A stretch of 64,000 nt of DNA, from NCBI GenBank assembly GCA_002162815.1, contig MAAT01000039.1:14605-78604 (forward strand). The letters run 5' to 3'. A program made the translations under genes and the position numbers. Under the pieces are notes generated by a model. That model made no database searches. It was not told the DNA's origin and saw nothing but the letters and a program-made list of their open reading frames with translations. Positions 31,090 through 48,677 of the stretch are shown piece after piece. Position 1 is the first letter of the stretch, and the number at the start of each line of letters is the position of its first letter. This DNA comes from Gammaproteobacteria bacterium 53_120_T64. GTDB lineage: Bacteria; Pseudomonadota; Gammaproteobacteria; Pseudomonadales; Porticoccaceae.

Positions 31090-32193
31090 ATGAAAACAAA
31101 AGCCGCAGTGCTTTATGAAATCGGTTCGCCTTTGGTTATTGAAGAGCTGGAATTGGAAGGCCCGAAAGAAAATGAAATTTTAGTGAACTACACCGCCAGT
31201 GGTATTTGCCACAGCGATTACTCCTTTGCTCATGGCGTACTGCCAACGCAATTGCCAGCCGTACTCGGTCACGAGGGCGCGGGTATCGTTGAAGAAGTCG
31301 GCGCCAATGTCACCAACGTAAAAGTTGGCGATCATGTTGTTGCCGCTCTGACTCCCGCCTGTGGTAAGTGTACTTTCTGCTTGGAGAGCAAGCCTTTTCT
31401 CTGTGCTGAAATGTCCAGTGTTATTTGGGAAGGTTGCCTGCTCGATGGCACCAAACGCTTTAAAAACAGCAAGGGCGAAGATGTTGGCCAGCTGGTATGT
31501 GTTGGCACCTTTTCTGAGCGTTCGGTTATTCCCGCCGGCATGGCGATTAAGGTGGATGACAAAGCCCCTCTCGACACCATTTGCTTGATCGGTTGTGGTG
31601 TGACCACCGGTGTTGGCGCAGCATTGAATACCGTCGACATTAAAGAGGGTGACAGCTGTGCTGTTATTGGCTGTGGTGGTGTTGGCTTGTCGATTATTCA
31701 AGGCTGTCGTATTGCCGGTGCCGGTCAGATCATTGCTATCGACCCGGTTGCTGAAAAGCGTGAGCTGGCACTGAGTATGGGTGCAACGATCGCTATCGAC
31801 CCCACTGATATCAATATTGTTAAAGAGATCCGTAAGGTCAGCAAGGGCGGTGTTCACTTTGCCTTTGAAGCACTCGGTTTGAAAGTGACTATCGAGCAAG
31901 CCTGGGCCATGCCTCGCGTTACCGGTACTGCAGTGATTGTTGGCGTGCCGAAAATGGATACCGAGCTTGAATTACCCGTATTAGGCTTCTTCGGTGAGAA
32001 GCACTTTAAGGGTTCTGCCTACGGTAGCTCCGTACCTTCAAAGGACATCCCCAAGTTTGTCGACCTGTATATGAAGGGCGAATTACAGCTTGACGAGATG
32101 ATCACCAAGCGCATTAAACTTGAAGACGTGAATACTGCCTTTGACGAAATGGGTCGTGGTGAAGGTGCGCGTTCAGTCATTATGCACGGCTAA
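31090..32193 (+). CDS. zinc-dependent alcohol dehydrogenase, paralog 2 (tandem duplicate)
   Basis: Same motifs and length (367 vs 368 aa) as its neighbour. Confidence 0.8.
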   Translation: MKTKAAVLYEIGSPLVIEELELEGPKENEILVNYTASGICHSDYSFAHGVLPTQLPAVLGHEGAGIVEEVGANVTNVKVGDHVVAALTPACGKCTFCLESKPFLCAEMSSVIWEGCLLDGTKRFKNSKGEDVGQLVCVGTFSERSVIPAGMAIKVDDKAPLDTICLIGCGVTTGVGAALNTVDIKEGDSCAVIGCGGVGLSIIQGCRIAGAGQIIAIDPVAEKRELALSMGATIAIDPTDINIVKEIRKVSKGGVHFAFEALGLKVTIEQAWAMPRVTGTAVIVGVPKMDTELELPVLGFFGEKHFKGSAYGSSVPSKDIPKFVDLYMKGELQLDEMITKRIKLEDVNTAFDEMGRGEGARSVIMHG

Positions 32194-32274
32194 CTAGTCA
32201 CTTTTTAAACGTAGAGAGACCTGCATATAGGCGTGAATAAGCCCTATGTGCGGGTTTTAAACAGGGAAAAAATA

Positions 32275-33129
32275 ATGAAAGAATTAACATCAAGCCCATT
32301 TGTTGATGGCTTTGTTTTTCTCGAAGGCCCGCGCTGGCACGACGGCAAGCTCTGGGTTTCTGACATGTTCGATAATACTGTGTTTACAATAAGCACTGAC
32401 GGCCAGCGCACGCCAATGGCGACTTTGCCCAATCGTCCCTCTGGCATTAACTTTATGCCCGATGGCTCAGTGGTTGTTGTTTCAATGGCTGATCGCAAGT
32501 TGATGACGCTGGCTGAAGATGGCTCTTTAAGCGAGTACGCTGATTTATCCGCAAATCTTGAATACGATATCAACGACTGTGTTTGTGCGCCGAATGGCAA
32601 TATTTATGTCGGTACTTTTGGTTACGACGTATTTGCTCATGACGAGCCCAAGCCTGCGACACTGACTCTGGTTAGAACTGACGGCACCATTCAAACGGTT
32701 GCCGAAGACATGCACTTCCCCAATGGTGCGTGTATTACCTCCGACGGAAAAACGCTGATCGTGGCGGAAACCTTCGTTGGTCGTATCACCGCATTTACCA
32801 TTGAAGCCGATGGTACTTTGTCCGGGCGTCGGGTCTTTGCCGACTTGGGCGCCTACACTCCCGACGGTATTTGTCTCGATCAAGAGGGTGCTGTCTGGGT
32901 GGCCGCTTTCGAAAATGGTGAGTTTCTTCGCGTGCTGGATGGCGGCGAGATCACCCATAAAATCGATACTGGTGATCGTCGTGCCGTCGCCTGTAACCTC
33001 GGTGGCGCCGATGGAAAAACACTGTATTGCCTGATTTATGACGGCGATTTGGACGATATTCCAGCGGGTAAGCGCAATGCAAAAATCGAAACAGTAACCG
33101 TTGACGTTGCCGGTGCAGCTTCACCCTAG
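32275..33129 (+). CDS. SMP-30/gluconolactonase/LRE-family protein (beta-propeller hydrolase)
   Basis: …LEGPRWHDGKLWVSD… six-bladed propeller signature. Start placed at ATG 32275. Confidence 0.65.
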   Translation: MKELTSSPFVDGFVFLEGPRWHDGKLWVSDMFDNTVFTISTDGQRTPMATLPNRPSGINFMPDGSVVVVSMADRKLMTLAEDGSLSEYADLSANLEYDINDCVCAPNGNIYVGTFGYDVFAHDEPKPATLTLVRTDGTIQTVAEDMHFPNGACITSDGKTLIVAETFVGRITAFTIEADGTLSGRRVFADLGAYTPDGICLDQEGAVWVAAFENGEFLRVLDGGEITHKIDTGDRRAVACNLGGADGKTLYCLIYDGDLDDIPAGKRNAKIETVTVDVAGAASP

Positions 33130-33187
33130 TTTTGTCATAAGCTAGGGTAGAGCGTTATCGCGATAACGCTGTTCGCGTCTGTATCAA

Positions 33188-33220
33188 AAGGCCGGAGGTA
33201 ATACCTCCGGCCTTTTTTTA
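33188..33220 (+). terminator. rho-independent terminator
   Basis: ggccggagg-taata-cctccggcc followed by T7. Confidence 0.85.
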
Positions 33221-33830
33221 TCTGGCGCATTCAAGCCTGATGATAATGCTTGGTTGTCATCCTTATTCTATGATGTTTTGAAAAATGGCGTGCCATTTGA
33301 TGAGATGTTTTCCTGCTTTGTATGAGGGCATCTAATCCTATTTACTGCACAGGCTGAGCCGATTACAGGTCATGGCCACGGCTGTTGTTAGGCTTTTAAT
33401 AGCACTGTATGGGCAGGAATAATCTTATGCTTAACGTGGTATTTAAAACACCGGTCACATTTGTAAGTGATGGTTGTCCCCAGTGCATGTCCGTAACGCA
33501 TACTTGGTTGACTCCTGCCCCCCTGATAGACAAATATACCTTATCTAAGGGTGCCGAGATATCAGCCGCCTTTAAAGTAGTGAGACACTTTCCATAATAG
33601 CCGTACGACGTCCTGACCACTACAGTCCGAGGCCGAAAGATAAACGGCCGTTGTCGAAAAATGCGCTAACCCGAGAATATGCTCCAGAACACGGGGTGTA
33701 TATAATCAGTAAGACTGGCTGCAGAAGAGTCGTAGCAGAGGCGCTAAGGTTTTGGCAAGGTTAAGGAATTCCCAGTGCTCTGAGCGCACTCATCAGGGTT
33801 TGAAGCAGCATAAATATAGGGAGGTAGACA

Positions 33831-34523
33831 ATGTTGGTGCTTTTGATGTCCGAGAGTTTGGATCCGTTTTATCAGAATATTTCTTCATTTCCGACGGCAT
33901 TTTTTACCTTTTTTCTACTTATCACCGTATTGTTTTGGCTCGTGGCTGTCCTGGGTTTTGTCGATATCGATATTTTAGATTTTGACAGCGCAGGGGGGAG
34001 TGGCGCTTTAACGGTCAATCAGGATGGTGCTTTATCAAGCCCGGAGGTCTTGGCCGGCTTGTTGTTGCGCTTTGGACTGCAAGGTGTGCCACTCACTGTC
34101 ATTATCTCTTTGGTCTCGCTTGTTGGCTGGTTGCTTTGCTATTACGCCGTGCATTTTTTTTTCGGGGCAATAGCGGGCGGCCTACTGCGTTTTATCGTCG
34201 GCTTTATCGTTTTACTTGTAGCGCTGTATCTGGCCGTTATCGGTACAGCCCTTCTGATCAAGCCACTGCGGCCTTTATTTAAAAGCGCTCAACAAGGCAC
34301 AGCCAAGTCTATGCTGGGTAAAACGGTGCTGGTGCGCACCTCGCGTGTCGATCGGGACTTTGGTGAGGCCACCTTAGAGGATGGTGGCGCAGGTCTTGTG
34401 CTGAAAATTAGAGCGGATGGTGAGAATACATTTTCGAAGAGTGAACGGGTTGTATTGCTGGAATACATCGAGGAAAAAAATGTGTACCGGGTTATTTCGG
34501 AAAAAGAATTCTTAGGTCAATAG
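33831..34523 (+). CDS. NfeD-like / YqiJ-like inner-membrane protein (N-terminal TM helices + C-terminal OB-fold)
   Basis: About four hydrophobic helices, then a beta-rich C-terminus (GKTVLVRTSRVD…GLVLKIRADGEN…ERVVLLEY). GGGAGG RBS. Immediately upstream of a flotillin gene, as in yqiJ-yqiK / nfeD-floT pairs. Confidence 0.6.
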   Translation: MLVLLMSESLDPFYQNISSFPTAFFTFFLLITVLFWLVAVLGFVDIDILDFDSAGGSGALTVNQDGALSSPEVLAGLLLRFGLQGVPLTVIISLVSLVGWLLCYYAVHFFFGAIAGGLLRFIVGFIVLLVALYLAVIGTALLIKPLRPLFKSAQQGTAKSMLGKTVLVRTSRVDRDFGEATLEDGGAGLVLKIRADGENTFSKSERVVLLEYIEEKNVYRVISEKEFLGQ

Positions 34524-34628
34524 TGTATTAGCAGGTCTATATCGATCTGCCAATGCCAAGCATGAATAGATAAAAAATTATTCAATCATTACGGCTAGAT
34601 TTGTTAATTAACACATGGAGTGAACACT

Positions 34629-36551
34629 ATGGCTGATTTATCAGTACTTATGCCCATCTTGACGAGCGTTGGCGTCTTCTTCGTTATTCTATTAGGGCTT
34701 GCGGCCTTATTTAAAGCCTTCTATATCAAGGTTGATCAGGGTACTGCGTTGATTGTTAATGATATGAGTTCACAACCCAAGGTGCATTTTACCGGTGCTT
34801 TGGTCTACCCGATAATTTACAGAAGGGAATTAATGAAGGTCTCCTTGATTACCCTGGAGGTGGATAGACGGGGTAAAGATGGTTTGATTTGCGCTGATAA
34901 TATGCGTGCCGATATAACAGTGGCCTTTTATCTGCGAGTTAATGAAACCGCAGAAGATGTCTTGAAAGTTGCAAAATCCCTGGGCGCAGGTCGAGCCTCG
35001 GATAAAGACGCGGTCAACCAACTTTTTAATGCTAAGTTTTCTGAGGCCTTGAAAACCGTGGGTAAGCAGATTGACTTTGTCAATTTATTTGAGAACCGCC
35101 AGGAGTTTCGCGAAAAAATTATTGAGGTGATTGGTGATGATCTCAACGGTTATATCTTGGAAGATGTGGCGATTGATTACCTGGAGCAAACGCCGAAGTC
35201 CTCTCTGGACCCGACAAATATACTTGACGCCGAGGGTATTAAAAAAATCACCGAATTAACGGCTAAGCAAAATGTTAACACCAATATTTTGGAGCGCAAT
35301 GAAGAGTTAGCGATCAAGAAAAAGGACGTTGAAACCGTTGAGGCGATGTTGGAATTAAAGCGCCAGCAGGCCGATGCCGAGGCCAAGCAAGAGAGAGAGG
35401 TTCTTACAATCAGGGCTCGGGAAGAGGCCGAAACGACAAAAGTTCAGGAGGAAGAGCGCCAGAGAGCGGAGGAAGCGACGATCCGGGTGAATCAGGAGTT
35501 ATCCGTCAAGACAGAGAATCAACAGCGTGAAATTGAAGTTGCCGCGCAAAACCGTCAACGCGCGGTTGCTATTGAAGAGGAAAAAGTAGTGCGAGCGCGT
35601 GATCTAGAAATTGTGTCTAGAGAGAAAGAGGTGGACCTACAGAAAATAGCCGCAGAGAAATCCCTGGAAATTGAAAGAAAAGAAATAGCCAATGTAATTC
35701 GCGAGCGTGTTGTCGTCGATAAGACAGTGGCTATCGAGGAAGAGAAAATTAATGAGGTGCGAGAGGTTTCCGAGGCGGATCGTGCCAAGCAGGTCAAAGT
35801 GCTCGCTGCTGAGGCTCTTGCCGAAGAGGACAAAGTCAAACAGGTAAAAGCTGCCGAAGCAGAGGAACAGGCTGCTAAACACAAGGCCAGTGAGGTGATT
35901 ACGCTGGCCCAGGCCGATTTGGAAGCGGCGGAAAAAGGCGCGGAAGCTAAGAAGAAGCTGGCAGAGGGGATTCAGGCCGAAGAGGCTGCAACGGGCTTAT
36001 CTGAGGCGAGGGTACAGGCCGCCAAGGCGGAGTCCCTTGAAAAAGAAGGCTTGGCCGAAGCCAGTGTTATTCAGGCCAAAGGTAATGCCGAAGCAGACGC
36101 ACTGTTACATACCGGCAAGGCACAAGCGGATGTCACGTTAGCCCAGTTTAAGGCTGAAGCGGATGGTTTGACCGACAAGTTTACGGCTATGAATAATATG
36201 GATGAGGACTCAAGGGCTCACGAAGAATTCCGTATGAGCCTCGAGACCGCGCTTAAAGAAGCACTGGCGGCAATAGAGGCGGGCAAGGATATTGCGAAGG
36301 AAAATGCTGAGGTACTAGCCGTTGCCCTGGCTACGGCGAAAATTGATATCGTCGGCGGCGAAGATCATTTCTTCAATAATTTTGGCAAGGCGCTTTCAAT
36401 GGGTAAAGCGATTGATGGCTTAGTAGAAAAAAGTGGCACCCTTTCAGCCGTTATAAACCGCGTCATTGAGGGCAAGCCCCTGCTTGATACAGAGCAAAGT
36501 GAAAGGCAAGGGACCGATAGGAAAGACGCAGAATGCTCCCCGGCAGAGTGA
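34629..36551 (+). CDS. flotillin / SPFH (band-7) family protein, YqiK/FloT-like
   Basis: N-terminal TM anchor, an SPFH domain (…ALIVNDMSSQ…VSLITLEVDRRGKDGLICADNMRADITVAFYLRVNE…), then a long Glu/Ala/Lys-rich coiled-coil flotillin tail. Confidence 0.8.
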   Translation: MADLSVLMPILTSVGVFFVILLGLAALFKAFYIKVDQGTALIVNDMSSQPKVHFTGALVYPIIYRRELMKVSLITLEVDRRGKDGLICADNMRADITVAFYLRVNETAEDVLKVAKSLGAGRASDKDAVNQLFNAKFSEALKTVGKQIDFVNLFENRQEFREKIIEVIGDDLNGYILEDVAIDYLEQTPKSSLDPTNILDAEGIKKITELTAKQNVNTNILERNEELAIKKKDVETVEAMLELKRQQADAEAKQEREVLTIRAREEAETTKVQEEERQRAEEATIRVNQELSVKTENQQREIEVAAQNRQRAVAIEEEKVVRARDLEIVSREKEVDLQKIAAEKSLEIERKEIANVIRERVVVDKTVAIEEEKINEVREVSEADRAKQVKVLAAEALAEEDKVKQVKAAEAEEQAAKHKASEVITLAQADLEAAEKGAEAKKKLAEGIQAEEAATGLSEARVQAAKAESLEKEGLAEASVIQAKGNAEADALLHTGKAQADVTLAQFKAEADGLTDKFTAMNNMDEDSRAHEEFRMSLETALKEALAAIEAGKDIAKENAEVLAVALATAKIDIVGGEDHFFNNFGKALSMGKAIDGLVEKSGTLSAVINRVIEGKPLLDTEQSERQGTDRKDAECSPAE

Positions 36552-36635: not shown

Positions 36636-39600
36636 ATGGTGGAGCAAAATCGCTCTGATAATATCGATAGCGAACTTGTCGCGAGTGCCGTTGCCGATGG
36701 CAGTGCGTATGAGGTCATTCGCAAACGCCTGATTGCACAGGGGAACAATCTCGATCAAAAAACGCGTCAGCTCAATGAGGCGCGTTTGGAGGAGTTCGGT
36801 CGTTCTGATATGAACGTACTGACTCGTGTCCGGGTGCGCACTGAAAATAATTGTGTGGCCAGAGATATTGTTCAAGTTGGTGGGCATTTATTATTTGGTT
36901 ACAACGTTTTCATTGGCCTCAAAAAAGAAACCAAGATTGAAGATGTTTTTGCACTTTTTGATGTCCGTGAAACGGATAGTACTTATGAGATGAAGCCGGT
37001 ATCCATGGCCGGTACTTTTCTAACTGACAGTGATTTTGTCAATGACTTTAATGAGCTGTACCGCTATTACAAGCACACCAAACTCGTCGAGTTGACAATA
37101 AATAGAGGGGTGCTGCTGGCGGGTTTTCAAATTGGTGAGCGGCTTGATGATCTTCGCGTTTTCCGCTGGTCACTATCGGCCGATGGTGGCGATGTTACAT
37201 ACATCGATAATCGTGGTGAGCGCAATATCGAGCTACCGCCGGCCTATGACTTTGAATGGCTGAGCACTAGCCACGATGACACGGTTCATGGTCGTCATGC
37301 CCATGTCAATATTCTCGATACGGTGTTTGTCGAAACGCTCAATGGCGAGCTCACCATCAAAGTTGAAAATAACACCGAAGACGGCCTGGGTATCTATCGC
37401 GAACCGGTCGAGGATAAAACCCAGTCGATTGATGACGCCGAAATCAGCTATGTGGCTGTCGGTAGTTTAATTTTATTGCAGGTCTGTCCCTATCGTGAAG
37501 AGCGTCCACGCTACCTGATTTATAACACCGTGACGCAAGAGGTGCTGCGTGTCGATGCTATTGGTCAGTCTTGCGTGCAATTACCGGAAGACCACGGGAT
37601 TATTTTCCCCGGTGGCTATTACCTGCAAAGCGGTGAATACAAAACTTTTGACCAGGAGTTCAATGGGCTAACGTTTAAACGTTCAATCCCTTCCCCTAAT
37701 GGCGAAGATATTCTCTATGTGTTTTACGACCCGCTAGAAGGTGCCCTCGGCTTATTCCCCTATAACATGATTGATAAGCAGCTAAATAAGCCTATTTTTG
37801 CCCATGGTTATGCCCTGGCTGAAAATGGTCAGCTAGTGATTTTTTCTGCGGAGGCCGAGCCGACGCGCATACATCCCATGCAAATTTGGCAAACGCCTTA
37901 TGTCAGCGATGAATTTGCCAGCCAGGTGCCTGACAGTCAGACCTTCCTGGGGCGTATTGGTAATGCTGAGCTCGTTCGCGGGGTGTCAGACCTCTATAGC
38001 ATTAGCCGTTTAATTGATAATCAATCGGTCACTTCACGCTTGTATGAGGAGCTTAATAACAACTCAAAAAAAATATTTGAGGACCATTACTGGATTGATA
38101 GAGAAGAAGTGCAAGGTGTTGCCACTGTCTTAAAGGACGTTTCAGCAACGGCTGAATTGGTGATCGATGAGTTTGAAAAGGTTGAGGGTATTCGTCAGCA
38201 GTCTGCTAAAACCCTGTTGCTAGCTGAGCGAGAGCAGCAGAATTTGATCCTCTCGATCCGCCCCGAAAACTGGGAAAGTGCTGAGGACTATGTCGATGCC
38301 CTTGGTAAGCTGCGCCGTCAACGGGGCCATTTAGCCACGGTTAAAGATCATCGCTATATGGATGTTGCCCGCATCGAACATCTGGACAAGGAATTACAGG
38401 ATGTCGATGCGTCCCTGAGTGTGCAAATCCTAGATTTTCTTTCCGATGAAAGGGCTCTTGAACCCTATCGCCATAAAATTGCAGCTTTAGATAAGGACCT
38501 TGCAAGGGCCGAGAGCATCGTCGAACTTTCTCCTATCATTGTCGCCATTGAGGGCGTCGCCTCTGGCTTGGACTTACTCTCTGAATTAATGACCAGTTTG
38601 AAAGTAGACGATGCGACCGTGCGCACGGGTATTATTGACACAATTTCCGAAGTCTATGCAAGGTTAAATCAAAGTAAGGCCAGCGCTAAGCATCGGCAAA
38701 AAAACCTCGGTTCTGAGGAAGCCATTGCCCAGTTTAGTGCACAATTTAAATTGTTCACTCAAAGTATTACCAATGCTCTGGGCTTGGCGAGCAGCCCAGA
38801 GCAATGTGATGAGCAGCTGTCACGGCTCCTGGTTCAACTTGAAGAGCTGGAAAGTCAGTTCACCGACTTTGACCAGTTTCTAGCCGACATCGTTGGCAAG
38901 CGCGAAGAGATTTACGAAGCTTTTGAAAGCCACAAACAACAATTGATGGATGAGCGTCAACGCAAGGCGCAATCTGTGGCCGATGCCGCCGATCGTATTT
39001 TATCAAGTATTAGCAAACGCTCGCTAAAATTTACCGATGCTGATGAATTAAATACCTACTTTGCGGCGGATGCCTTGGTGATGAAGGCTCGCGATTTGGT
39101 GGAACGCTTACGTGAGCTGGATAGTGCCGTTAAAGCGGACGATGTTGAGTCGCGTCATAAAGCCATTGTCGAGCAAGCCCTGCGCTCACTGCGAGATAAG
39201 TCGGATATCTTTGAGGATGGCGGCAAGATCATCAGGCTGGGGCCACGGCATAAGTTTTCAGTCAACAAGCAGGAACTGGATTTAACCATCATTCCACGGG
39301 ATGGTGAGCTGAGTCTTCATTTGACCGGCACCAATTATTACGAGCCGATTGTCCACCCCGAATTATTGGCTGCGCGAGATTATTGGCAAATGTCGCTGGA
39401 GTCTGAAACCCGGAAGGTCTACCGGGGAGAGTTTTTAGCCGCGTTGATCATGGACGCCGCCCAGGTACAGCAGCAGGGTTTATCGATTGATGCTCTCAAT
39501 ACTGCGTTGCTTGACGACGCGGAGTTAGAAAAACTGGTGAGGAATTTCGCTAGCCCACGCTACAAAGAGGGTTATGAAAAGGGCGTGCATGACCACGATG

Positions 39601-41993
39601 CAGCGCTACTTATTAAGCAATTAATGCCTGCGATCAAGCGTGCAGACCTACTACGGTATGACCCCTTAAGTCGAGGGTTGGCGCAAGTATTTTGGGCGAA
39701 TATTAAGGGTGGCGCGAAGAGAAACACCGCAGGCTTATCGAAGGTGGGTGGCGAGGGTTATATTGGCAGAGACTGGCTTCCCCACGATACTTGGCCCGAA
39801 CGCGCTCAGTCGGCAACACAGATGCAATCGGTGTTTGCCAGCGCCGAGGCACTTGAACTCTTAGCCGTGGAAGTGCGTCAGCAATTAACGGCCTTTATTG
39901 ACCAGCACCCGATCGCCGTTAATGTGCTGGATATCCGCCGCGCTGCGGATTATTTGGTGGCCGAGCTGGGTCGTGAACGCCTGGAGTTTATTGGTAGTAA
40001 ATACGCCCTTCAGCTTGTCGATCTGTTGAAAGGCTCTATGGACGACGATACTTGGCGTCGTTACCAGGCTTCGCTGCAGAAGATGCTGGGTTGGCCCGCC
40101 GAGCGCTGGCAACTAAGTACCGCCTGGTTCCAGGCCTTATTGTTTGATAGTGCCTCGAATGCGGCTGGTTTAGACCAACAGCGGGCCGGCCAATTGGCAC
40201 GATATATCCCGGAAGCGGTGGCGCTGATCAATGCCGATGAGCGCCTGGAGCGTCGCCTTACCGAGGTGGATGTTGAATTGACGGTGACGGGTTTATTGGG
40301 CGAACACGCTAGTATTGAAAAACGCACGCTAACTTTTGCCTTGGATGCCTACCTGCAACGTATGGAAGAGCACCGTTTTGAGGTGCTGCCTGGTTATAAA
40401 AACTACCTTCAGCTTCGGCAGGACTTTATTGTCGAGAAGCGTGGCGAGTTGCGCCTTGAGCAATTTAAGGCGCGCCCCTTAAGCTCCTTTGTGCGCAATC
40501 GTTTGATTAATGAATCTTACCTGCCCTTGATTGGCGATAACTTTGCCAAGCAAATGGGCACCGTGGGGGAGAATAAGCGCACCGACCTGATGGGCTTGCT
40601 GATGCTCATCTCCCCTCCGGGCTACGGTAAAACCACCCTCATGGAGTACGTCGCGAACCGGCTGGGCTTGATCTTTATGAAGATTAACTGCCCGTCACTG
40701 GGGCACGATGTCCTTTCTCTTGACCCCGAGCAGGCACCGAACGCGACGGCTCGTCAGGAGCTGGAAAAATTAAACCTGGCCTTGGAAATGGGTAATAACG
40801 TCATGCTTTACCTTGACGATATCCAGCATACCCACCCGGAGTTCCTGCAAAAATTCATCTCATTATGTGATGGTACGCGTCGTATCGAAGGTGTTTGGCG
40901 AGGGGAGCCCAAGACTTACGATATGCGCGGCCGCAAGTTTGCCGTCGTTATGGCGGGCAACCCCTATACCGAATCCGGCGAGTTGTTCAAAGTACCGGAT
41001 ATGCTGGCCAACCGAGCCGATATTTATAACCTGGGTGATATTCTCGGCGGTATGGATGAGCAGTTCTCCCTCAGTTATATCGAGAACGCACTGACCTCCC
41101 ACCCGGTATTGGCGCCATTGGCCCTTAGGGAAATGGATGACGTCTATCAGTTGATCGACTTGGCGAAGGGGCGGAGTGTTACAAGCAGTGAGTTAAGCCA
41201 TCAATACAGTGCCGGTGAAATTAACGAAATCACCGGCATCTTCAAAAAGTTGTTCGTTATTCAGGGCCTCGTATTGAAGATCAACCAACAATACATTAGC
41301 TCCGCCGCCCAGAATGACCAATATCGTATTGAACCGGCATTCAAGTTGCAGGGTAGTTATCGCAATATGAATAAGATGACGGAAAAGGTTTCCACGGTGA
41401 TGAACGACGCCGAGTTGATGCAAATGATTGTCGATCACTATTTAGGCGAAGCGCAACTATTGACGACCGGCGCGGAAGACAATTTATTGAAGCTGGCTGA
41501 ATTGCGGGGCAATATCAGCACGGAGGAGTCGACGCGCTGGGAACAGATTAAAGCAGATTTTCTGCGTAATAAAGCCATCGGTGGTGACGAAGCGGATGTC
41601 GGTGGCAAGGTGATAGCCCAGCTCGCGGATCTGGTGGCCGGTGTGCAGGGCTTGAGTACAGTGTCATCGCGAGCTGGCCCCGTGACACCCGATACGACAG
41701 CGGAGTTATCGGCGTCATCGGCGTCGCTAGTGGCTGTACTGGATAAGCTGACGGCCGTCGTTGCACAGGGCCGACCGCATGTAGAGGTGGTTAATCAGCC
41801 CGTGCCGGGTATGGATAAAATCATGAGCGTTCTCGCCAATACGATTATCTATAGTATTTTCCCCTTGGTGCGCAGTATGGATAAAAAGCTCGATATGGAC
41901 CTGCGCAGCCATGACCAAATGCAAGATATCTCCCAGCAGTTGCGTGACCTGGAGTCTGGGGTGGCTGGCAAGCCCGCGAAAACTACTGAGTAG
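36636..41993 (+). CDS. giant (1785 aa) uncharacterised protein with one AAA_5-like (dynein/midasin/MoxR-type) ATPase domain near the C-terminus
   Basis: Uninterrupted 5.36-kb ORF. AAAGGAGAG RBS. Walker A LISPPGYGKTT (about nt 40611-40637), Walker B MLYLDDIQ (about 40804-40826), sensor-1 AVVMAGNPY (about 40941-40967), and a RF-x-IY-type box PDMLANRADIYNLG (about 41000-41040). Only one P-loop is present in the whole protein. The N-terminal roughly 1250 aa show no recognisable family. Confidence 0.75.
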   Translation: MVEQNRSDNIDSELVASAVADGSAYEVIRKRLIAQGNNLDQKTRQLNEARLEEFGRSDMNVLTRVRVRTENNCVARDIVQVGGHLLFGYNVFIGLKKETKIEDVFALFDVRETDSTYEMKPVSMAGTFLTDSDFVNDFNELYRYYKHTKLVELTINRGVLLAGFQIGERLDDLRVFRWSLSADGGDVTYIDNRGERNIELPPAYDFEWLSTSHDDTVHGRHAHVNILDTVFVETLNGELTIKVENNTEDGLGIYREPVEDKTQSIDDAEISYVAVGSLILLQVCPYREERPRYLIYNTVTQEVLRVDAIGQSCVQLPEDHGIIFPGGYYLQSGEYKTFDQEFNGLTFKRSIPSPNGEDILYVFYDPLEGALGLFPYNMIDKQLNKPIFAHGYALAENGQLVIFSAEAEPTRIHPMQIWQTPYVSDEFASQVPDSQTFLGRIGNAELVRGVSDLYSISRLIDNQSVTSRLYEELNNNSKKIFEDHYWIDREEVQGVATVLKDVSATAELVIDEFEKVEGIRQQSAKTLLLAEREQQNLILSIRPENWESAEDYVDALGKLRRQRGHLATVKDHRYMDVARIEHLDKELQDVDASLSVQILDFLSDERALEPYRHKIAALDKDLARAESIVELSPIIVAIEGVASGLDLLSELMTSLKVDDATVRTGIIDTISEVYARLNQSKASAKHRQKNLGSEEAIAQFSAQFKLFTQSITNALGLASSPEQCDEQLSRLLVQLEELESQFTDFDQFLADIVGKREEIYEAFESHKQQLMDERQRKAQSVADAADRILSSISKRSLKFTDADELNTYFAADALVMKARDLVERLRELDSAVKADDVESRHKAIVEQALRSLRDKSDIFEDGGKIIRLGPRHKFSVNKQELDLTIIPRDGELSLHLTGTNYYEPIVHPELLAARDYWQMSLESETRKVYRGEFLAALIMDAAQVQQQGLSIDALNTALLDDAELEKLVRNFASPRYKEGYEKGVHDHDAALLIKQLMPAIKRADLLRYDPLSRGLAQVFWANIKGGAKRNTAGLSKVGGEGYIGRDWLPHDTWPERAQSATQMQSVFASAEALELLAVEVRQQLTAFIDQHPIAVNVLDIRRAADYLVAELGRERLEFIGSKYALQLVDLLKGSMDDDTWRRYQASLQKMLGWPAERWQLSTAWFQALLFDSASNAAGLDQQRAGQLARYIPEAVALINADERLERRLTEVDVELTVTGLLGEHASIEKRTLTFALDAYLQRMEEHRFEVLPGYKNYLQLRQDFIVEKRGELRLEQFKARPLSSFVRNRLINESYLPLIGDNFAKQMGTVGENKRTDLMGLLMLISPPGYGKTTLMEYVANRLGLIFMKINCPSLGHDVLSLDPEQAPNATARQELEKLNLALEMGNNVMLYLDDIQHTHPEFLQKFISLCDGTRRIEGVWRGEPKTYDMRGRKFAVVMAGNPYTESGELFKVPDMLANRADIYNLGDILGGMDEQFSLSYIENALTSHPVLAPLALREMDDVYQLIDLAKGRSVTSSELSHQYSAGEINEITGIFKKLFVIQGLVLKINQQYISSAAQNDQYRIEPAFKLQGSYRNMNKMTEKVSTVMNDAELMQMIVDHYLGEAQLLTTGAEDNLLKLAELRGNISTEESTRWEQIKADFLRNKAIGGDEADVGGKVIAQLADLVAGVQGLSTVSSRAGPVTPDTTAELSASSASLVAVLDKLTAVVAQGRPHVEVVNQPVPGMDKIMSVLANTIIYSIFPLVRSMDKKLDMDLRSHDQMQDISQQLRDLESGVAGKPAKTTE

Positions 41994-42319: not shown

Positions 42320-43972
42320 ATGCAAAATATAAGTCCCCAGGTACTGGAGTTTATTGGCCACGAGTACAAGTCGGTGCTGCAATCTGTCAACGGCTTAGTA
42401 CAGCGACTGACCATCGCTCACTTAGAAGAGCTTAATGAGCAGCTACTAGAGCTACGCGGTGCCGCACAGATGGCCCAGCTTGCGGGTATGAGTCGCTTGT
42501 TTGCCGAGATGGCGAGGGCTGTAGACGCGGTGATTAGTGGCGATAAGGCCATTGACGAGCTGCAACCCTTGCTTGACCAGGCCCTGCTGCTGGCGGACGG
42601 TTTGATCGCCAGTATTGTTGAGCAAAAATCTGAGAACCCCTGCGTGCTTCTTCCCGAAATGACGGCGCTGCGCCGCTTCAGGGGCGCGCCTCCGCTCTAT
42701 GAATACCACTTGCTGAAGGACATCACTTGGCCACCCTTTGCCAGCCTGACTCAAGATGAAGACATAATAGGCCCGCAAACGGAGGGGCTGAAACGCTGGC
42801 ACCACCTCTATCAACTGGGGCTACTGGATATTATCCGCAATAATAATCGCCAAAAAGCCTTGTTCAATTTATTTCGAGTCGCGGGGCGTTTACAAAAAGT
42901 CGCCATATCTGCGCGAGAAAGTGATTACTGGTGGGTGTTTGCGCTCACCATCAAAGGCTTTGCCGAAAAGAAATTGAGTTTGCAGCCAGAGCGTATTCGC
43001 CTACTTGCGGCGGTGGAGAAACAATTGCGTTTGTTGGTGGCAACGGATCAGGTGGGAGCGCGAAACCCCTACCCTGAAGGCCTATGGCGCGCCTTTGTTA
43101 GCTTGTTGGCGATGACGGATATGTCCAGTGACCCGCGCGCGAAGCAGATTGGTGTGCCCAAATTAATGTTTTCTGACTCGGCTATATCCTCGGTGCGCAA
43201 CGCCATCACTGGTGAGTTGGATGCCGATAAAAGCATCCTTGAATCCATGGCGCTGTCGGCGGCGACCTTGCGTACATTGCTGGATAACGGCCCGGAATCT
43301 GCCTCCCTGCTTAACGGCGATAAACTGCAAGAGTTGAGTGTGGGTTTTACGGCATTGGCTGAAGAATGTGAGCAGGCCGGTTTTCGAGGTTTGTCGCGCC
43401 AGTACCAGCAGTTTTGCTCACGCTTACAGAGTTGCTCCGATGGTGAGTTACCCGCTGAATTACTCGCAGAATTTACCGATGCGGTGCTCCATGTCGAGTG
43501 CGCACTGGCCGATTTCTATGGCAAAACACCGCAGGCAGAGCAAATTAAAGCCTGGGAAGCTCAACCCTTGATGAGCATCTTGCAAAAGAGTTTATTAAAG
43601 ACGGCACAGGTTGCCGTGGTGAATGAGACTGCGGCCCGACTGGGTGATATCAAACAACTGGTGGACAATGTCGCCTCGGGGTATGCCTCGGCTGAAGTCA
43701 CCCCCGAGCTCGAGCTAGCCTTTGCCGAAATCGAAGGTAGCGCCAGTATGCTCAATATGGTTCGTTTTGCGAGTCTGGCAGATCGTTGTTTAATGCTCGC
43801 AAAAGAAGTGCTCTTCACCGATACCAATGGCGATGATGGCAAGCCGATTGAGGTGTTTGCCGATACCATTGTCTGTCTAGAGTATTTCCTCGATGGTTGT
43901 ATGGTGGGTGATACTATCGATGAGAGCTCTCTCGATGTCGCCAATGAGTGTTTGTCGTCACTCGGTGCCTAA
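42320..43972 (+). CDS. hypothetical alpha-helical protein (550 aa)
   Basis: Clean ORF after a 326-bp spacer. Leu/Ala/Glu/Gln-rich. No catalytic motif recognised. Possibly a FimL/ChpA-N-terminus-like scaffold, but this is speculative. Confidence 0.55.
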   Translation: MQNISPQVLEFIGHEYKSVLQSVNGLVQRLTIAHLEELNEQLLELRGAAQMAQLAGMSRLFAEMARAVDAVISGDKAIDELQPLLDQALLLADGLIASIVEQKSENPCVLLPEMTALRRFRGAPPLYEYHLLKDITWPPFASLTQDEDIIGPQTEGLKRWHHLYQLGLLDIIRNNNRQKALFNLFRVAGRLQKVAISARESDYWWVFALTIKGFAEKKLSLQPERIRLLAAVEKQLRLLVATDQVGARNPYPEGLWRAFVSLLAMTDMSSDPRAKQIGVPKLMFSDSAISSVRNAITGELDADKSILESMALSAATLRTLLDNGPESASLLNGDKLQELSVGFTALAEECEQAGFRGLSRQYQQFCSRLQSCSDGELPAELLAEFTDAVLHVECALADFYGKTPQAEQIKAWEAQPLMSILQKSLLKTAQVAVVNETAARLGDIKQLVDNVASGYASAEVTPELELAFAEIEGSASMLNMVRFASLADRCLMLAKEVLFTDTNGDDGKPIEVFADTIVCLEYFLDGCMVGDTIDESSLDVANECLSSLGA

Positions 43973-44198: not shown

Positions 44199-45254
44199 TT
44201 GGAATTTTTAAGTGAATATGGGCTTTTTCTTGCCAAATCATTAACCGTGGTGGTAGTTGTCGCTGTGCTTGCCGGCATACTCGCCAGCCTTGGCCAGCGG
44301 GGTAAAAGGCACGATAAGGGCCATATTGACGTGCTGTCATTTAACGACACGATTGCCGATATGAGCGATGCTTTAGCCGATGTCGTGGTGTCTGACGAAG
44401 CCCGTAAAGCGCTATTAAAAGCCGAGAAAAAAGAGAAGAAAGCTCAGCAGAAAGCCGACAAAAAGGCCTCCAAGAGTGGCGATGCTCCGGTCGCTAAAAA
44501 ACGTGTTTTTGTACTGGATTTTCACGGTGATATACGCGCCTCTGCGGTGGCAAGTTTCCGTGAAGAAATTACCACAGTACTCAGCCTCGCCAGTAGCCAT
44601 GATGAAATTGTGGTGCGTCTAGAAAGTGGCGGCGGCATGGTGCCGAGCTACGGTCTTGCCGCCAGCCAGCTCGATCGCATTACAAAGAAAAGTATTCCGC
44701 TCACCGTGTGTATCGATAAAGTCGCGGCCAGTGGCGGTTATATGATGGCCTGTGTGGCCGATCAAATCCTCGCTGCGCCCTTCGCGGTAATTGGCTCGAT
44801 TGGCGTGGTGGCACAGATCCCCAACGTACATCGTTTGTTAAAAAAGCACGATGTCGACATCGAGTTGATGACGGCCGGTAAATACAAACGCACCCTTACT
44901 ATGCTCGGTGAAAATACTGAGGAGGGACGAGAGAAGTTTCGCGAGGAATTAGAGGATACCCACGAGCTGTTTAAAACCTTTGTCGGCGAGCATCGCCCCG
45001 GCCTCGATGTTGAAGAGATAGCCACGGGTGAGGTTTGGTACGGCGCGCCTGCCGTTAAGAAGGGCTTGGTTGACGATACTAAAACCAGCGATGAGTACCT
45101 AATCGCTCAGCTCGACAGTGCCGATATTTATACGGTGGCCTACGTTCATAAAAAAACCCTACCGGAGAAGTTTGGCTTTGCTCTGGAGAGTAGCGGTGAC
45201 CGTTTTGTGATGCGCTGGGTGCGGCGTTTAATGGGGCCTGTTCCTCTGGCCTAA
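44199..45254 (+). CDS. sohB: S49 family inner-membrane peptidase SohB
   Basis: Collinear with E. coli SohB (MELLSEYGLFLAK…VLDFKG…LRLESPGGMV…DKVAASGGYMMACVAD…GENTEEGREKFREEL…). TTG start. Confidence 0.85.
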   Translation: MEFLSEYGLFLAKSLTVVVVVAVLAGILASLGQRGKRHDKGHIDVLSFNDTIADMSDALADVVVSDEARKALLKAEKKEKKAQQKADKKASKSGDAPVAKKRVFVLDFHGDIRASAVASFREEITTVLSLASSHDEIVVRLESGGGMVPSYGLAASQLDRITKKSIPLTVCIDKVAASGGYMMACVADQILAAPFAVIGSIGVVAQIPNVHRLLKKHDVDIELMTAGKYKRTLTMLGENTEEGREKFREELEDTHELFKTFVGEHRPGLDVEEIATGEVWYGAPAVKKGLVDDTKTSDEYLIAQLDSADIYTVAYVHKKTLPEKFGFALESSGDRFVMRWVRRLMGPVPLA

Positions 45255-46525: not shown

Positions 46526-47032
46526 CTATCGACGGCGAAATAGTGGTTGTTCTTGATTGACGCAGGCTTGGTAGGTGACGCTGAACGCCGCCAGATAGTC
46601 TTCTAGCTGGTGGTGTGGCTCGGCTTCATCACCGAGGGATAGGGCATCAAGACAAAAAGCGTCAAAACCACAGCGCGATAGGTAAAACAGTTGGTCGGGC
46701 ACAATGTGGCCAATGGCGCGAAGCTCACCGGTAAACTGATAGCGTTCGCGAATCAGGCGGGCGATGGAAAAGCCACGGCCGTCCATAAAGCTGGGGAAAT
46801 TCACCGCTAGGTGTCGGAGCTTTTCTATATCACCGGCGAATTTCTCGGGCTCCTGATCGGCGTCTAGCCAAACGCCAATCGTGTCTGGGTTTTGCAGTGA
46901 CTCTTTGTTCGCCAGCCAATAGTTGAGGGGCACAAAACAGGGCGCGTCCGGCAGCGAGCCAGAGAAGTCCTTGGGTAGTACCTGCCAGCCATTGTCGACC
47001 AGGCTTTTGTCTTTAAGCAGCTTTGGCATAGA
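46526..47032 (-). CDS. DUF934-family protein (conserved partner of assimilatory sulfite reductase)
   Basis: Start placed at MPKLLKDKS… (ATG at 47032). The longer ORF-track version overlaps cysI. Start overlaps the cysI stop by 20 nt, so the two genes are probably translationally coupled. Confidence 0.6.
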   Translation of the reverse strand, partial: SMPKLLKDKSLVDNGWQVLPKDFSGSLPDAPCFVPLNYWLANKESLQNPDTIGVWLDADQEPEKFAGDIEKLRHLAVNFPSFMDGRGFSIARLIRERYQFTGELRAIGHIVPDQLFYLSRCGFDAFCLDALSLGDEAEPHHQLEDYLAAFSVTYQACVNQEQPLFRRR

Positions 47033-48677
47033 TAAACTCCTTGAAAGGGGCGGTGCCAATACGGCGATGGGTGTCGAGAAAGGTCTCGCCCTCGATACGC
47101 CGGTCGACATAGATGTTGAGAATGCTTTCCAGTACGTCGGGGATTTCGCGGGCGTAGAAGGAGGGGCCGAGTACCTTGCCCAGCGATGCGTCGTCGAGGG
47201 CGCTGCCGCCGAGCTGCACCTGGTAAAACTCTTCGCCCTTCTTATCAACGCCGAGGATACCGATATTGCCGACATGGTGGTGGCCGCAGGCGTTCATGCA
47301 GCCGGAGATGTTGAGCTTGATATCGCCCAGGTCGTAGAGGTAGTCGAGATCGTCAAAGCGGCGCTGAATCGCCTCGGCGACGGGGATGGACTTGGCATTG
47401 GCGAGTGAGCAAAAGTCACCGCCGGGGCAGCAAATCATATCGACCAGAGTGCCGATGCTGGGCGTTGCGAAACCCAGTTGTTTGGCGGCTTGCCAGAGTT
47501 CGGGCAGGTCGCTCAATTTGACGTCGCCGAGCACCAGGTTTTGGTGGTGGGTGACCCGCACCTCGTCGAAAGAGTAGCGCTCGGCGAGATCGGCAATTGC
47601 TTCAAGCTGGCTGTCGGTGACATCACCTGGGGCAACGCCGGTGGGTTTGAGTGATAGGTGGACGGCGCAGTATCCGGCGACTTTATGAGTGACAACATTC
47701 CTGTCGCGCCATTTACCAAAGGCAATTTGCTCGCTGGCCAGTTGTTGCAGCGCCGCCTCGCAGCTGGCGACATCGACGCTTTCATAACTTGGGCTGGTAA
47801 AGAAGGCTTCGGCGTGGGCAATGACCTCGTCGGTCAGTGTCGACGGGCTGTCGATCTGTTGTAGCCATTCTTGCTCGACCTTGTCGGCGAAGACTTCGGC
47901 AGTCCAGGCCTTGAGGAGAATTTTAATACGTGCCTTGTACTTATTGTCGCGGCGCCCATAGCGGTTATAGACGCGCAAAATTGCTTCGAGATAGGTTAAT
48001 AAGTGTTTGGCGGGCAGAAAGTCTTTAATCACTTCGCCGATGGCGGGGCTACGACCCAGGCCGCCACCCACTAGCACCTTAAAGCCGACTTCATCATCGG
48101 CATTTTTCAGTACCTGCAAGCCGATGTCGTGTACCTGAATAGCCGCTCTGTCACTTTTAGAGCCACTGACCGCGATCTTAAATTTGCGCGGTAAAAAGGC
48201 AAATTCGGGGTGTAGGGTCGACCACTGGCGGATAATCTCACACCAGGGGCGGGGGTCTACAATTTCGTCGGCGCTAATGCCGGCAAATTCATCGGAGGTG
48301 ACGTTGCGAATACAGCTGCCACTGCTCTGTATACCCTGCATCTCTACAGCCGCCAATTCGGCGAGAATATCGGGGACTTCTTCAAGCTGGGGCCAGTTGA
48401 GCTGGATGTTCTGGCGGGTGGTAAAGTGGGCATAGCCCTTGTCGTACTTGCGGGTAATACCGGCCAGGGCGCGAAGCTGGGTGGCCGAAACCATGCCGTA
48501 GGGAATATTGATGCGCAGCATGGGTGCGAGGCGTTGTACATAGAGACCATTTTGCAGGCGCAGAGGTAGAAACACCGCATCGGGAATCTTACCCGCCAAG
48601 TAATCGTCTGTTTGGCGGCGATATTGGGCGACGCGTTCACCAATCAGGGTTTTGTCATGTTGGTCGTATATGTACAT
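47013..48677 (-). CDS. cysI: assimilatory sulfite reductase hemoprotein (nitrite/sulfite reductase family, siroheme-[4Fe-4S])
   Basis: 554 aa. Cluster-binding Cys motifs CPGGDFC…ISGCMNACGHHHVGNIGILG. Confidence 0.8.
   Translation of the reverse strand: MYIYDQHDKTLIGERVAQYRRQTDDYLAGKIPDAVFLPLRLQNGLYVQRLAPMLRINIPYGMVSATQLRALAGITRKYDKGYAHFTTRQNIQLNWPQLEEVPDILAELAAVEMQGIQSSGSCIRNVTSDEFAGISADEIVDPRPWCEIIRQWSTLHPEFAFLPRKFKIAVSGSKSDRAAIQVHDIGLQVLKNADDEVGFKVLVGGGLGRSPAIGEVIKDFLPAKHLLTYLEAILRVYNRYGRRDNKYKARIKILLKAWTAEVFADKVEQEWLQQIDSPSTLTDEVIAHAEAFFTSPSYESVDVASCEAALQQLASEQIAFGKWRDRNVVTHKVAGYCAVHLSLKPTGVAPGDVTDSQLEAIADLAERYSFDEVRVTHHQNLVLGDVKLSDLPELWQAAKQLGFATPSIGTLVDMICCPGGDFCSLANAKSIPVAEAIQRRFDDLDYLYDLGDIKLNISGCMNACGHHHVGNIGILGVDKKGEEFYQVQLGGSALDDASLGKVLGPSFYAREIPDVLESILNIYVDRRIEGETFLDTHRRIGTAPFKEFIYAKAA

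Follow-up and report, generated by a model that had tools for sequence, protein, structure and literature searches.

SPFH proteins and AAA+ machines form several known pairs, including HflK/C with FtsH, prohibitin with the m-AAA protease, and the SLP2 (SPFH), PARL (rhomboid) and YME1L (AAA+) trio. A possibly comparable pair is encoded in Gammaproteobacteria bacterium 53_120_T64 (Porticoccaceae), on a stretch of 64,000 nucleotides (nt) from contig MAAT01000039.1 of assembly GCA_002162815.1 (positions 14,605 to 78,604), which is called the window here. The gene in question encodes a large AAA+ protein (hereafter the ATPase) and is located directly downstream of a flotillin gene (Table 1). As in the known pairs, a membrane SPFH oligomer is coupled, genetically or physically, to an AAA+ machine; the rhomboid gene found in 12 of the 84 related loci that were compared also recalls the SLP2-PARL-YME1L trio. 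Unlike these systems, the ATPase has neither a protease domain nor a transmembrane (TM) segment and is not of the FtsH clade, and the coupling observed here is genetic.

The closest described system was reported by Ravi et al. (mSystems 2024, PMC11237479). Their operons join CesT/Tir-PspA with YqiJ/YuaF, a band-7/flotillin protein and a protein composed of a beta-propeller, a coiled coil and an AAA+ ATPase; some of these operons also contain a PLD gene. Abbreviated operons, consisting of flotillin, YqiJ/YuaF and sometimes the ATPase, were reported to be widely distributed. The same study proposed a chaperone-like or remodelling role together with PspA and the band-7 proteins, envisaged membrane remodelling that depends on ATP, and drew an analogy with ESCRT. 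The window carries the abbreviated operon form. Its domain order and gene order (YqiJ-like, flotillin, ATPase) are identical to those described; whereas the PspA, CesT/Tir and PLD genes of the long operon are missing from the 64 kb, and otherwise nothing is different. A Hymenobacter plasmid locus also shows the gene order of the Ravi et al. operon. Literature searches revealed no paper on DUF3686, PF12458 or DUF7902, and the PspA comparative-genomics study was the only one describing the ATPase. The family is already in Pfam, was computationally described in 2024 and is experimentally untouched; the copy in the window is an ordinary, well-conserved member and adds nothing beyond that description.

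The first two genes are also similar to the yqiJ-yqiK operon of Escherichia coli and the yuaF-floT operon of Bacillus subtilis, which combine NfeD-like and flotillin genes; homologues of YqiJ and YqiK are found in the same order here. However, the E. coli operon has no third gene for an ATPase, and the flotillin of the window escapes the Pfam Band_7 and flotillin models.

The flotillin-ATPase gene unit and its relatives

The ATPase gene is the third of a three-gene unit, with a terminator-like hairpin as the upstream boundary. An earlier annotation, made from the letters of the window alone (the sequence-only reading), had overlooked the two genes that immediately precede the ATPase gene, those of the flotillin and the YqiJ-like protein. 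The flotillin has a single TM segment, which is N-terminal (aa 3-39; aa, amino acid), and shares 51% identity over 594 aa with a Streptomyces 'flotillin family protein'. Its family profile (A4) aligned with E. coli YqiK over 387 columns (hhalign 99.9%, expect value (E) 1e-34). No Pfam match was found for it, not even to the Band_7 and flotillin models at E<=10, and the profile had no match in the PDB; its identity was established by the hhalign comparison with YqiK only. The YqiJ-like protein contains hydrophobic segments at aa 16-52 and 73-147, and matched a Hymenobacter DUF1449 protein in BLASTP (E 5e-11). The direct BLASTP comparison of this 230-aa protein with E. coli YqiJ was not significant; the family profile (A5) was needed to align the two (hhalign 89.8%, E 1.8e-6).

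The flotillin subfamily often shows higher conservation than the ATPase, as in locus L005 (95% versus 84%). A non-coding leader of about 600 nt (33217..33830) separates the hairpin from the YqiJ-like gene, and contains a 56-codon open reading frame (ORF) with a CPQC motif, which starts at about 33427. The Rfam scan gave no match in the window, and the promoter and terminator scans of the window stayed at background level except for the hairpin at 33186.

Gene order was compared in 84 related loci (L001-L084). The counts were taken from tblastn because the crude ORF caller picked antisense ORFs within the GC-rich flotillin genes. In 81 of the 84 loci, which is every locus that could be tested (81/81), the flotillin gene directly precedes the ATPase gene and has the same orientation; the other three are contigs starting inside the ATPase gene. 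This strict synteny covers Gamma-, Beta- and Zetaproteobacteria, Myxococcota, Actinomycetota, Bacteroidota, Deinococcota and a Clostridia metagenome-assembled genome, and the gap between the two genes has a median of 92 nt. In 75 of the loci, a YqiJ-like gene precedes that of the flotillin. The recurrent extra neighbours, mostly on the same strand, encode PspA/IM30 (39 loci, within 8 kb and often together with DUF2170), DUF2170 (38), PLD-like proteins (15), TelA (13), rhomboid proteins (12) and a zinc-ribbon protein (9). None of these six is present in the window, where the neighbours of the unit are housekeeping genes.

Rhomboid, PLD-like, TelA and MscK-like mechanosensitive channel genes are located downstream of the ATPase gene in L013, L020, L035, L044, L066 and other loci. 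The zinc-ribbon gene is also downstream in most loci; in L066 it is immediately upstream. These accessory genes adjoining the ATPase gene vary between loci, and all have a membrane or envelope-stress theme.

The ATPase gene itself is an intact ORF of 1785 codons with an ATG start, and the coordinates and length given in the sequence-only reading were exact. The ORFs that overlap it on the two strands all fall short of 100 aa, as that reading had also claimed; the longest are 97, 93, 88, 81 and 81 aa. A frameshift or sequencing error had been named as a possible objection. The product is 100% identical to the NCBI 'DNA repair protein' of 'Gammaproteobacteria bacterium 53_120_T64' and has full-length homologues in the thousands, and therefore the gene is real and did not arise by chance or through a frameshift error. 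Over 5000 homologues received a score, and the best 120 of them share 65-84% identity over the full length. An exhaustive search of aa 1-1200 against 1.84 billion cluster representatives gave 443 clusters at E<=1e-30, typically of 1550-1900 aa. The family occurs in at least 597 species genomes and has the same taxonomic spread as the synteny, again with one Clostridia metagenome-assembled genome. Members from different genera share 65-84% identity and those from different phyla 40-55%, and the architecture and the order of the genes stay fixed. The E. coli genomes and the phage genomes that were searched gave no match, and the NCBIfam search assigned the ATPase to no family.

Copies of the gene are also located on megaplasmids such as pQBR103 and on plasmids of Streptomyces, Deinococcus and Hymenobacter. 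In total, 13 of 72,556 plasmid records carry it, several of which are chromosomes or chromids. The plasmid counts are inflated because PLSDB includes evident Proteus mirabilis chromosomes, namely the 4.08-Mb records NZ_OL790812.1 (L085) and NZ_OL790811.1, which are filed there as 'plasmids'.

Domain organisation of the ATPase

AlphaFold2 models were built from a 51-sequence alignment, and aa 1-1200 and aa 1151-1785 were modelled separately. The N-terminal two-thirds of the protein had been thought to match nothing; instead, aa 39-485 belong to Pfam DUF3686 (654.5 bits, cutoff 25, E 8.4e-197, model positions 2-448 of 448), aa 607-689 belong to DUF7902 (93.7 bits, E 8e-27), and the architecture was described by Ravi et al. 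(2024). The description of this region as a beta-rich start followed by a long acidic helical part was accurate, as aa 60-420 are rich in strands and the helices of aa 425-856 contain 18.8% D+E. In the model of aa 1-1200 (mean predicted local distance difference test (pLDDT) 80.8), a helix at aa 9-54 precedes about 29 strands and then the very long helices; a small beta domain (aa 865-905) and a helical domain (aa 908-1200) follow. Foldseek comparison of this model with the PDB returned exclusively beta-propeller proteins (E 1e-5 to 1e-3, about 10% identity), including nucleoporins, IFT-A, Elp1, WD40 proteins, paraoxonase and prolyl oligopeptidase, some of which have helical extensions. As judged from the predicted structure, these matches reflect the generic propeller fold and pinpoint no specific relative. 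The arrangement of propeller and helical arm superficially recalls coat or nucleoporin-type proteins.

The C-terminal part contains the AAA+ module. Only one GK[ST] motif occurs across the whole 1785-aa protein, in agreement with the single P-loop of the sequence-only reading, and all ATPase motifs quoted there were recovered: LISPPGYGKTT (aa 1324-1334), KINCPSLGHDVLSLDP (aa 1349-1364), MLYLDDIQ (aa 1390-1397), AVVMAGNPY (aa 1436-1444) and PDMLANRADIYNLG (aa 1454-1467). The module has the highest conservation in the protein, with about 70% identity across 78 divergent relatives; aa 1000-1250 and aa 1650-1785 are variable. The highly conserved elements SPPGYGKT, Y.DDIQH, MAGNPYTESG, PDMLANR and QGSYRNM show no variation in A1 or in the 78-sequence alignment. 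The Walker A motif carries S where AAA+ proteins usually have G, and the Walker B motif has DD (D1394-D1395) instead of the usual DE, which is invariant family-wide. The invariance of the Walker A and B motifs, the sensor-1 region and the candidate arginine finger in the 78 sequences suggests that catalysis by the ATPase is under constraint. The model of aa 1151-1785 (mean pLDDT 70.6, with low confidence at aa 1444-1464) showed an AAA+ core with a hairpin between helix 3 and strand 4, a lid and extra helices. The ATPase should be cytoplasmic because no membrane segment is predicted in it; the Pfam scan also revealed no nuclease or DNA-binding domain. At aa 1715-1785 (41778..41990), a hydrophobic or amphipathic helix (PVPGMDKIMSVLANTIIYSIFPLVRSMDKKL) is found only in gammaproteobacterial members and is absent or unalignable in distant ones. 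This helix may be a membrane- or partner-binding element.

The AAA+ region gave weak and nearly equal Pfam matches to AAA_22 (30.8 bits), AAA (29.4 bits) and AAA_5 (27.5 bits, cutoff 22; positions 2-125 of 139), and this pattern was repeated in all 19 divergent members scanned. The fold of the module is nearest to the MoxR proteins NorQ and CbbQ, which were the top AAA+ matches. The hhalign comparison with E. coli proteins gave RuvB (95.6%), Lon (88.8%) and RavA (16.7%), all over short stretches, and only the P-loop for FtsH and ClpX; the templates were single sequences, which are too weak to assign an AAA+ clade. Searches of the PDB sequences with the single protein and with the family profile matched Rix7, NVL, p97 and RuvB in the P-loop only and revealed no solved relative. 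The earlier call of an AAA_5-like ATPase is reasonable; the RavA value and the DD of Walker B do not support membership of MoxR at the sequence level. The ATPase also differs from the MoxR family (NorQ, CbbQ, RavA) in having no VWA partner among its annotated neighbours. Moreover, MoxR proteins are about 250-500 aa long; whereas here the AAA+ module is C-terminal in 1785 aa, behind a propeller and a helical region of 900 residues. The statement that the protein is not a classical AAA was correct, as the module falls outside the PF00004 clade (FtsH, p97, Vps4). Classical AAA proteins are marked by a PF00004 match over the full length, with the second region of homology, and by the lack of a hairpin before sensor 1; the ATPase does not show this combination.

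A McrB-like restriction component was rejected, with an hhalign match to E. coli McrB of 67% over 23 P-loop columns only. No McrC-like gene was found among the window proteins scanned or the annotated recurrent neighbours of the ATPase loci.

Proposed function and competing explanations

It is fairly probable that the ATPase works in the cytoplasm as an AAA+ remodeller specific to flotillin assemblies, which could serve in envelope-stress handling. The MoxR-like AAA+ module would mediate oligomerisation, with a hexamer as the probable form, and the long helical arms and terminal propellers of the protein might dock onto the cytoplasmic flotillin (SPFH) assembly. This assembly would be anchored by the TM segment of the flotillin and by YqiJ. 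ATP hydrolysis could then assemble, remodel or disassemble the flotillin scaffold, or extract clients from it, where both the substrate and the direction are what we infer. Remodelling of flotillin might be one part of an envelope-stress or membrane-maintenance response, which in many genomes would include PspA. A more elaborate picture is offered only tentatively: a hexameric MoxR-like motor with six long propeller-tipped arms might grip flotillin cages on the membrane's inner face and open, close or recycle them, possibly passing clients to rhomboid, PLD or PspA.

If this elaborate picture is true, bacterial flotillins would be cycled at the expense of energy, as in the SPFH/AAA+ pairs of mitochondria (SLP2-PARL-YME1L) or in the action of Vps4 on ESCRT-III. 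For one flotillin subfamily, the ATPase family supplies an apparently obligate genetic partner that is predicted to consume ATP, and it offers a good handle on the mechanism of bacterial flotillins. It is present in the tractable Stenotrophomonas maltophilia, Proteus mirabilis, Pseudomonas, Myxococcus and Streptomyces.

The main alternative is compatible with a flotillin remodeller and is considered rather unlikely. It takes the ATPase as a Vps4-like partner that disassembles or recycles polymers of PspA, an ESCRT-III homologue, on damaged membrane, with flotillin as the platform. The linkage of an AAA+ protein to PspA/IM30 genes in 39 of the 84 loci, often with DUF2170 (the protein that Ravi et al. 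call CesT/Tir-like), is a similarity to the Vps4/ESCRT-III and PspF/PspA systems, and the ESCRT analogy was made by Ravi et al. (2024, PMC11237479). In addition, the membrane localisation of PspA in B. subtilis is reported to need an SPFH protein (Scholz et al. 2021), which counts for this explanation. However, PspA is missing from more than half of the 84 loci and from the 64-kb window, whereas none of the 81 testable loci lacks flotillin; the linkage to PspA is thus facultative, and that to flotillin holds in every testable locus, unlike the Vps4 and PspF systems. The ATPase also has no MIT-like domain and no sigma-54 interaction element, and its MoxR-like AAA+ module belongs to another clade than the classical Vps4.

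A membrane-acting anti-phage or conflict system, in which a large NTPase sensor with PLD or rhomboid effectors would cause abortive infection, is improbable. The large multidomain NTPase with a propeller that could serve as sensor, the PLD and rhomboid genes adjoining the ATPase gene in some loci, and the copies on megaplasmids and plasmids are consistent with such a system. Against this, the PADLOC scan of the ATPase was empty beyond a weak match to LmuB (E 1.6e-3) on the coiled coil only, and the phage genomes gave no match. The conservation is unusually high and the architecture and gene order are fixed, unlike in fast-evolving defence genes. The neighbours in the window are housekeeping genes, and the few plasmid records with the gene include several chromosomes or chromids.

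The two remaining explanations, a MoxR-VWA pair and a DNA repair ATPase, have essentially no support, and both are very improbable. In the first, which was the model of the sequence-only reading, a MoxR-type ATPase acts with a VWA/MIDAS partner encoded by the downstream gene for a 550-aa protein. The nearest folds, NorQ and CbbQ, would fit this model, and some JGI annotations name the homologues 'MoxR-like ATPase'. However, the 550-aa protein showed no VWA or other Pfam match in the local Pfam copy even at E<=10; the motif taken as DxSxS-like reads D-S-A-I-S, and no DxSxS motif is present. Its 46 homologues, mostly from Porticoccaceae-like gammaproteobacteria, carry PF27543/PF26379 and sometimes Hpt (PF01627). 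Moreover, its gene is separated from the ATPase gene by 326 nt and adjoins the ATPase unit in one of the 84 loci only, that of the sister genome. It was rejected as the VWA partner on these grounds (no VWA or Pfam match, no DxSxS, synteny in 1/84 loci). No VWA family was seen among the annotated recurrent neighbour clusters, which are only some of the clusters. The 550-aa protein looks, from its homologues, like a degenerate Hpt-domain signalling protein, and is outside the flotillin-ATPase system. It may be comparable to FimL and the N-terminal part of ChpA.

In the second, the database label of a DNA repair ATPase of the SMC/RecN/Rad50 kind comes from the Pfam description line of DUF3686 ('ATPase involved in DNA repair') and names propagated from it, with the coiled-coil likeness to LmuB as the only other point; yet the C-terminal AAA+ module holds the sole NTPase motif set rather than an ABC-type head split by a coiled coil, the Pfam scan gave no nuclease or DNA-binding domain, the neighbours in the 84 loci include no DNA-repair gene and the conserved ones are membrane proteins, and the literature searches found no supporting paper. 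The database name is unsupported, and the ATPase is probably not a DNA repair protein. The labels 'DNA repair ATPase' and 'DNA repair protein' on homologues of 1600-1800 aa are without support, and 'flotillin-associated AAA+ ATPase' would be a better name.

Coordinates and other genes of the window

Table 1. Features of the window, with positions counted from its first nucleotide
Feature	Position	Strand	Basis or remark
Two tandem zinc-dependent alcohol dehydrogenase paralogues, 368 and 367 aa	29923..31029, 31090..32193	+	
SMP-30/gluconolactonase-like gene, after the alcohol dehydrogenases	32233..33129		
Intrinsic-terminator-like hairpin, strong, ends the preceding gene	33186..33216	+	14-bp stem, 8 GC pairs, T run
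YqiJ/YuaF-type (DUF1449, NfeD-like) polytopic membrane protein, 230 aa, C-terminal soluble beta domain	33831..34523	+	
YqiK-type flotillin, 643 aa: N-terminal TM segment, SPFH domain, long E/A-rich coiled coil, C-terminal cap region	34620..36551	+	
ATPase, DUF3686 family: propeller, helical arm and AAA+, 1785 aa	36636..41993	+	ORF, Pfam and homologues
Beta-propeller, aa 60-420, about 29 strands (about 7 blades), DUF3686 core; helix aa 9-54 before it	36813..37895	+	Pfam; AlphaFold2 pLDDT about 80-90; Foldseek
Long-helix arm, aa 425-856, helices up to about 50 residues, 18.8% D+E, DUF7902 at aa 607-689	37908..39203	+	AlphaFold2, Pfam
Small conserved beta domain, aa 865-905	39228..39350	+	AlphaFold2 strands 865-904; conserved G869, H872, F874, H895, T899
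Helical domain, aa 908-1250	39357..40385	+	Conserved 975-990 (RY.EGY.KG.HD.DA); 1000-1250 variable with indels
AAA+ module with lid, aa ~1280-1600	40473..41435	+	Best-conserved part of the family
Walker A SPPGYGKT, aa 1326-1333, K1332	40611..40634	+	Invariant in A1 and the 78-sequence alignment
Walker B MLYLDDIQH, aa 1390-1398	40803..40829	+	D1394, D1395, I1396, Q1397, H1398 invariant
Predicted beta-hairpin before sensor 1, aa 1416-1429	40881..40922	+	AlphaFold2 strands 266-271, 274-279 of the aa 1151-1785 model
Sensor-1 region and candidate arginine finger MAGNPYTESG..F.VPDMLANRADIYNLG, aa 1439-1467 (N1442, R1460)	40950..41036	+	Invariant residues; AlphaFold2 confidence low
LQGSYRNMNK, aa 1571-1580, candidate sensor-2 arginine R1576 in lid	41346..41375	+	Q1572-M1578 invariant; putative role
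C-terminal helical extension and variable tail, aa 1601-1785	41436..41990	+	Last ~70 residues conserved only in gammaproteobacterial members
550-aa protein, Hpt-like	42320..43972	+	326-nt gap after the ATPase gene
SohB, S49 family, ClpP-fold protease	44199..45254	+	NCBIfam equivalog PRK11778, E 1.6e-149
DUF934 ORF	46526..47275	-	From first start codon; ~260 nt overlap with the sulfite/nitrite reductase gene
Sulfite/nitrite reductase gene, upstream of the DUF934 ORF	47013..48677	-	

The protease SohB has an NfeD-related fold; its location near the flotillin operon appears coincidental because, like the gene of the 550-aa protein, it adjoins the ATPase unit only here and in the sister genome. 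The real start of the DUF934 gene is probably further downstream than listed, because the Pfam match spans only aa 133-245.

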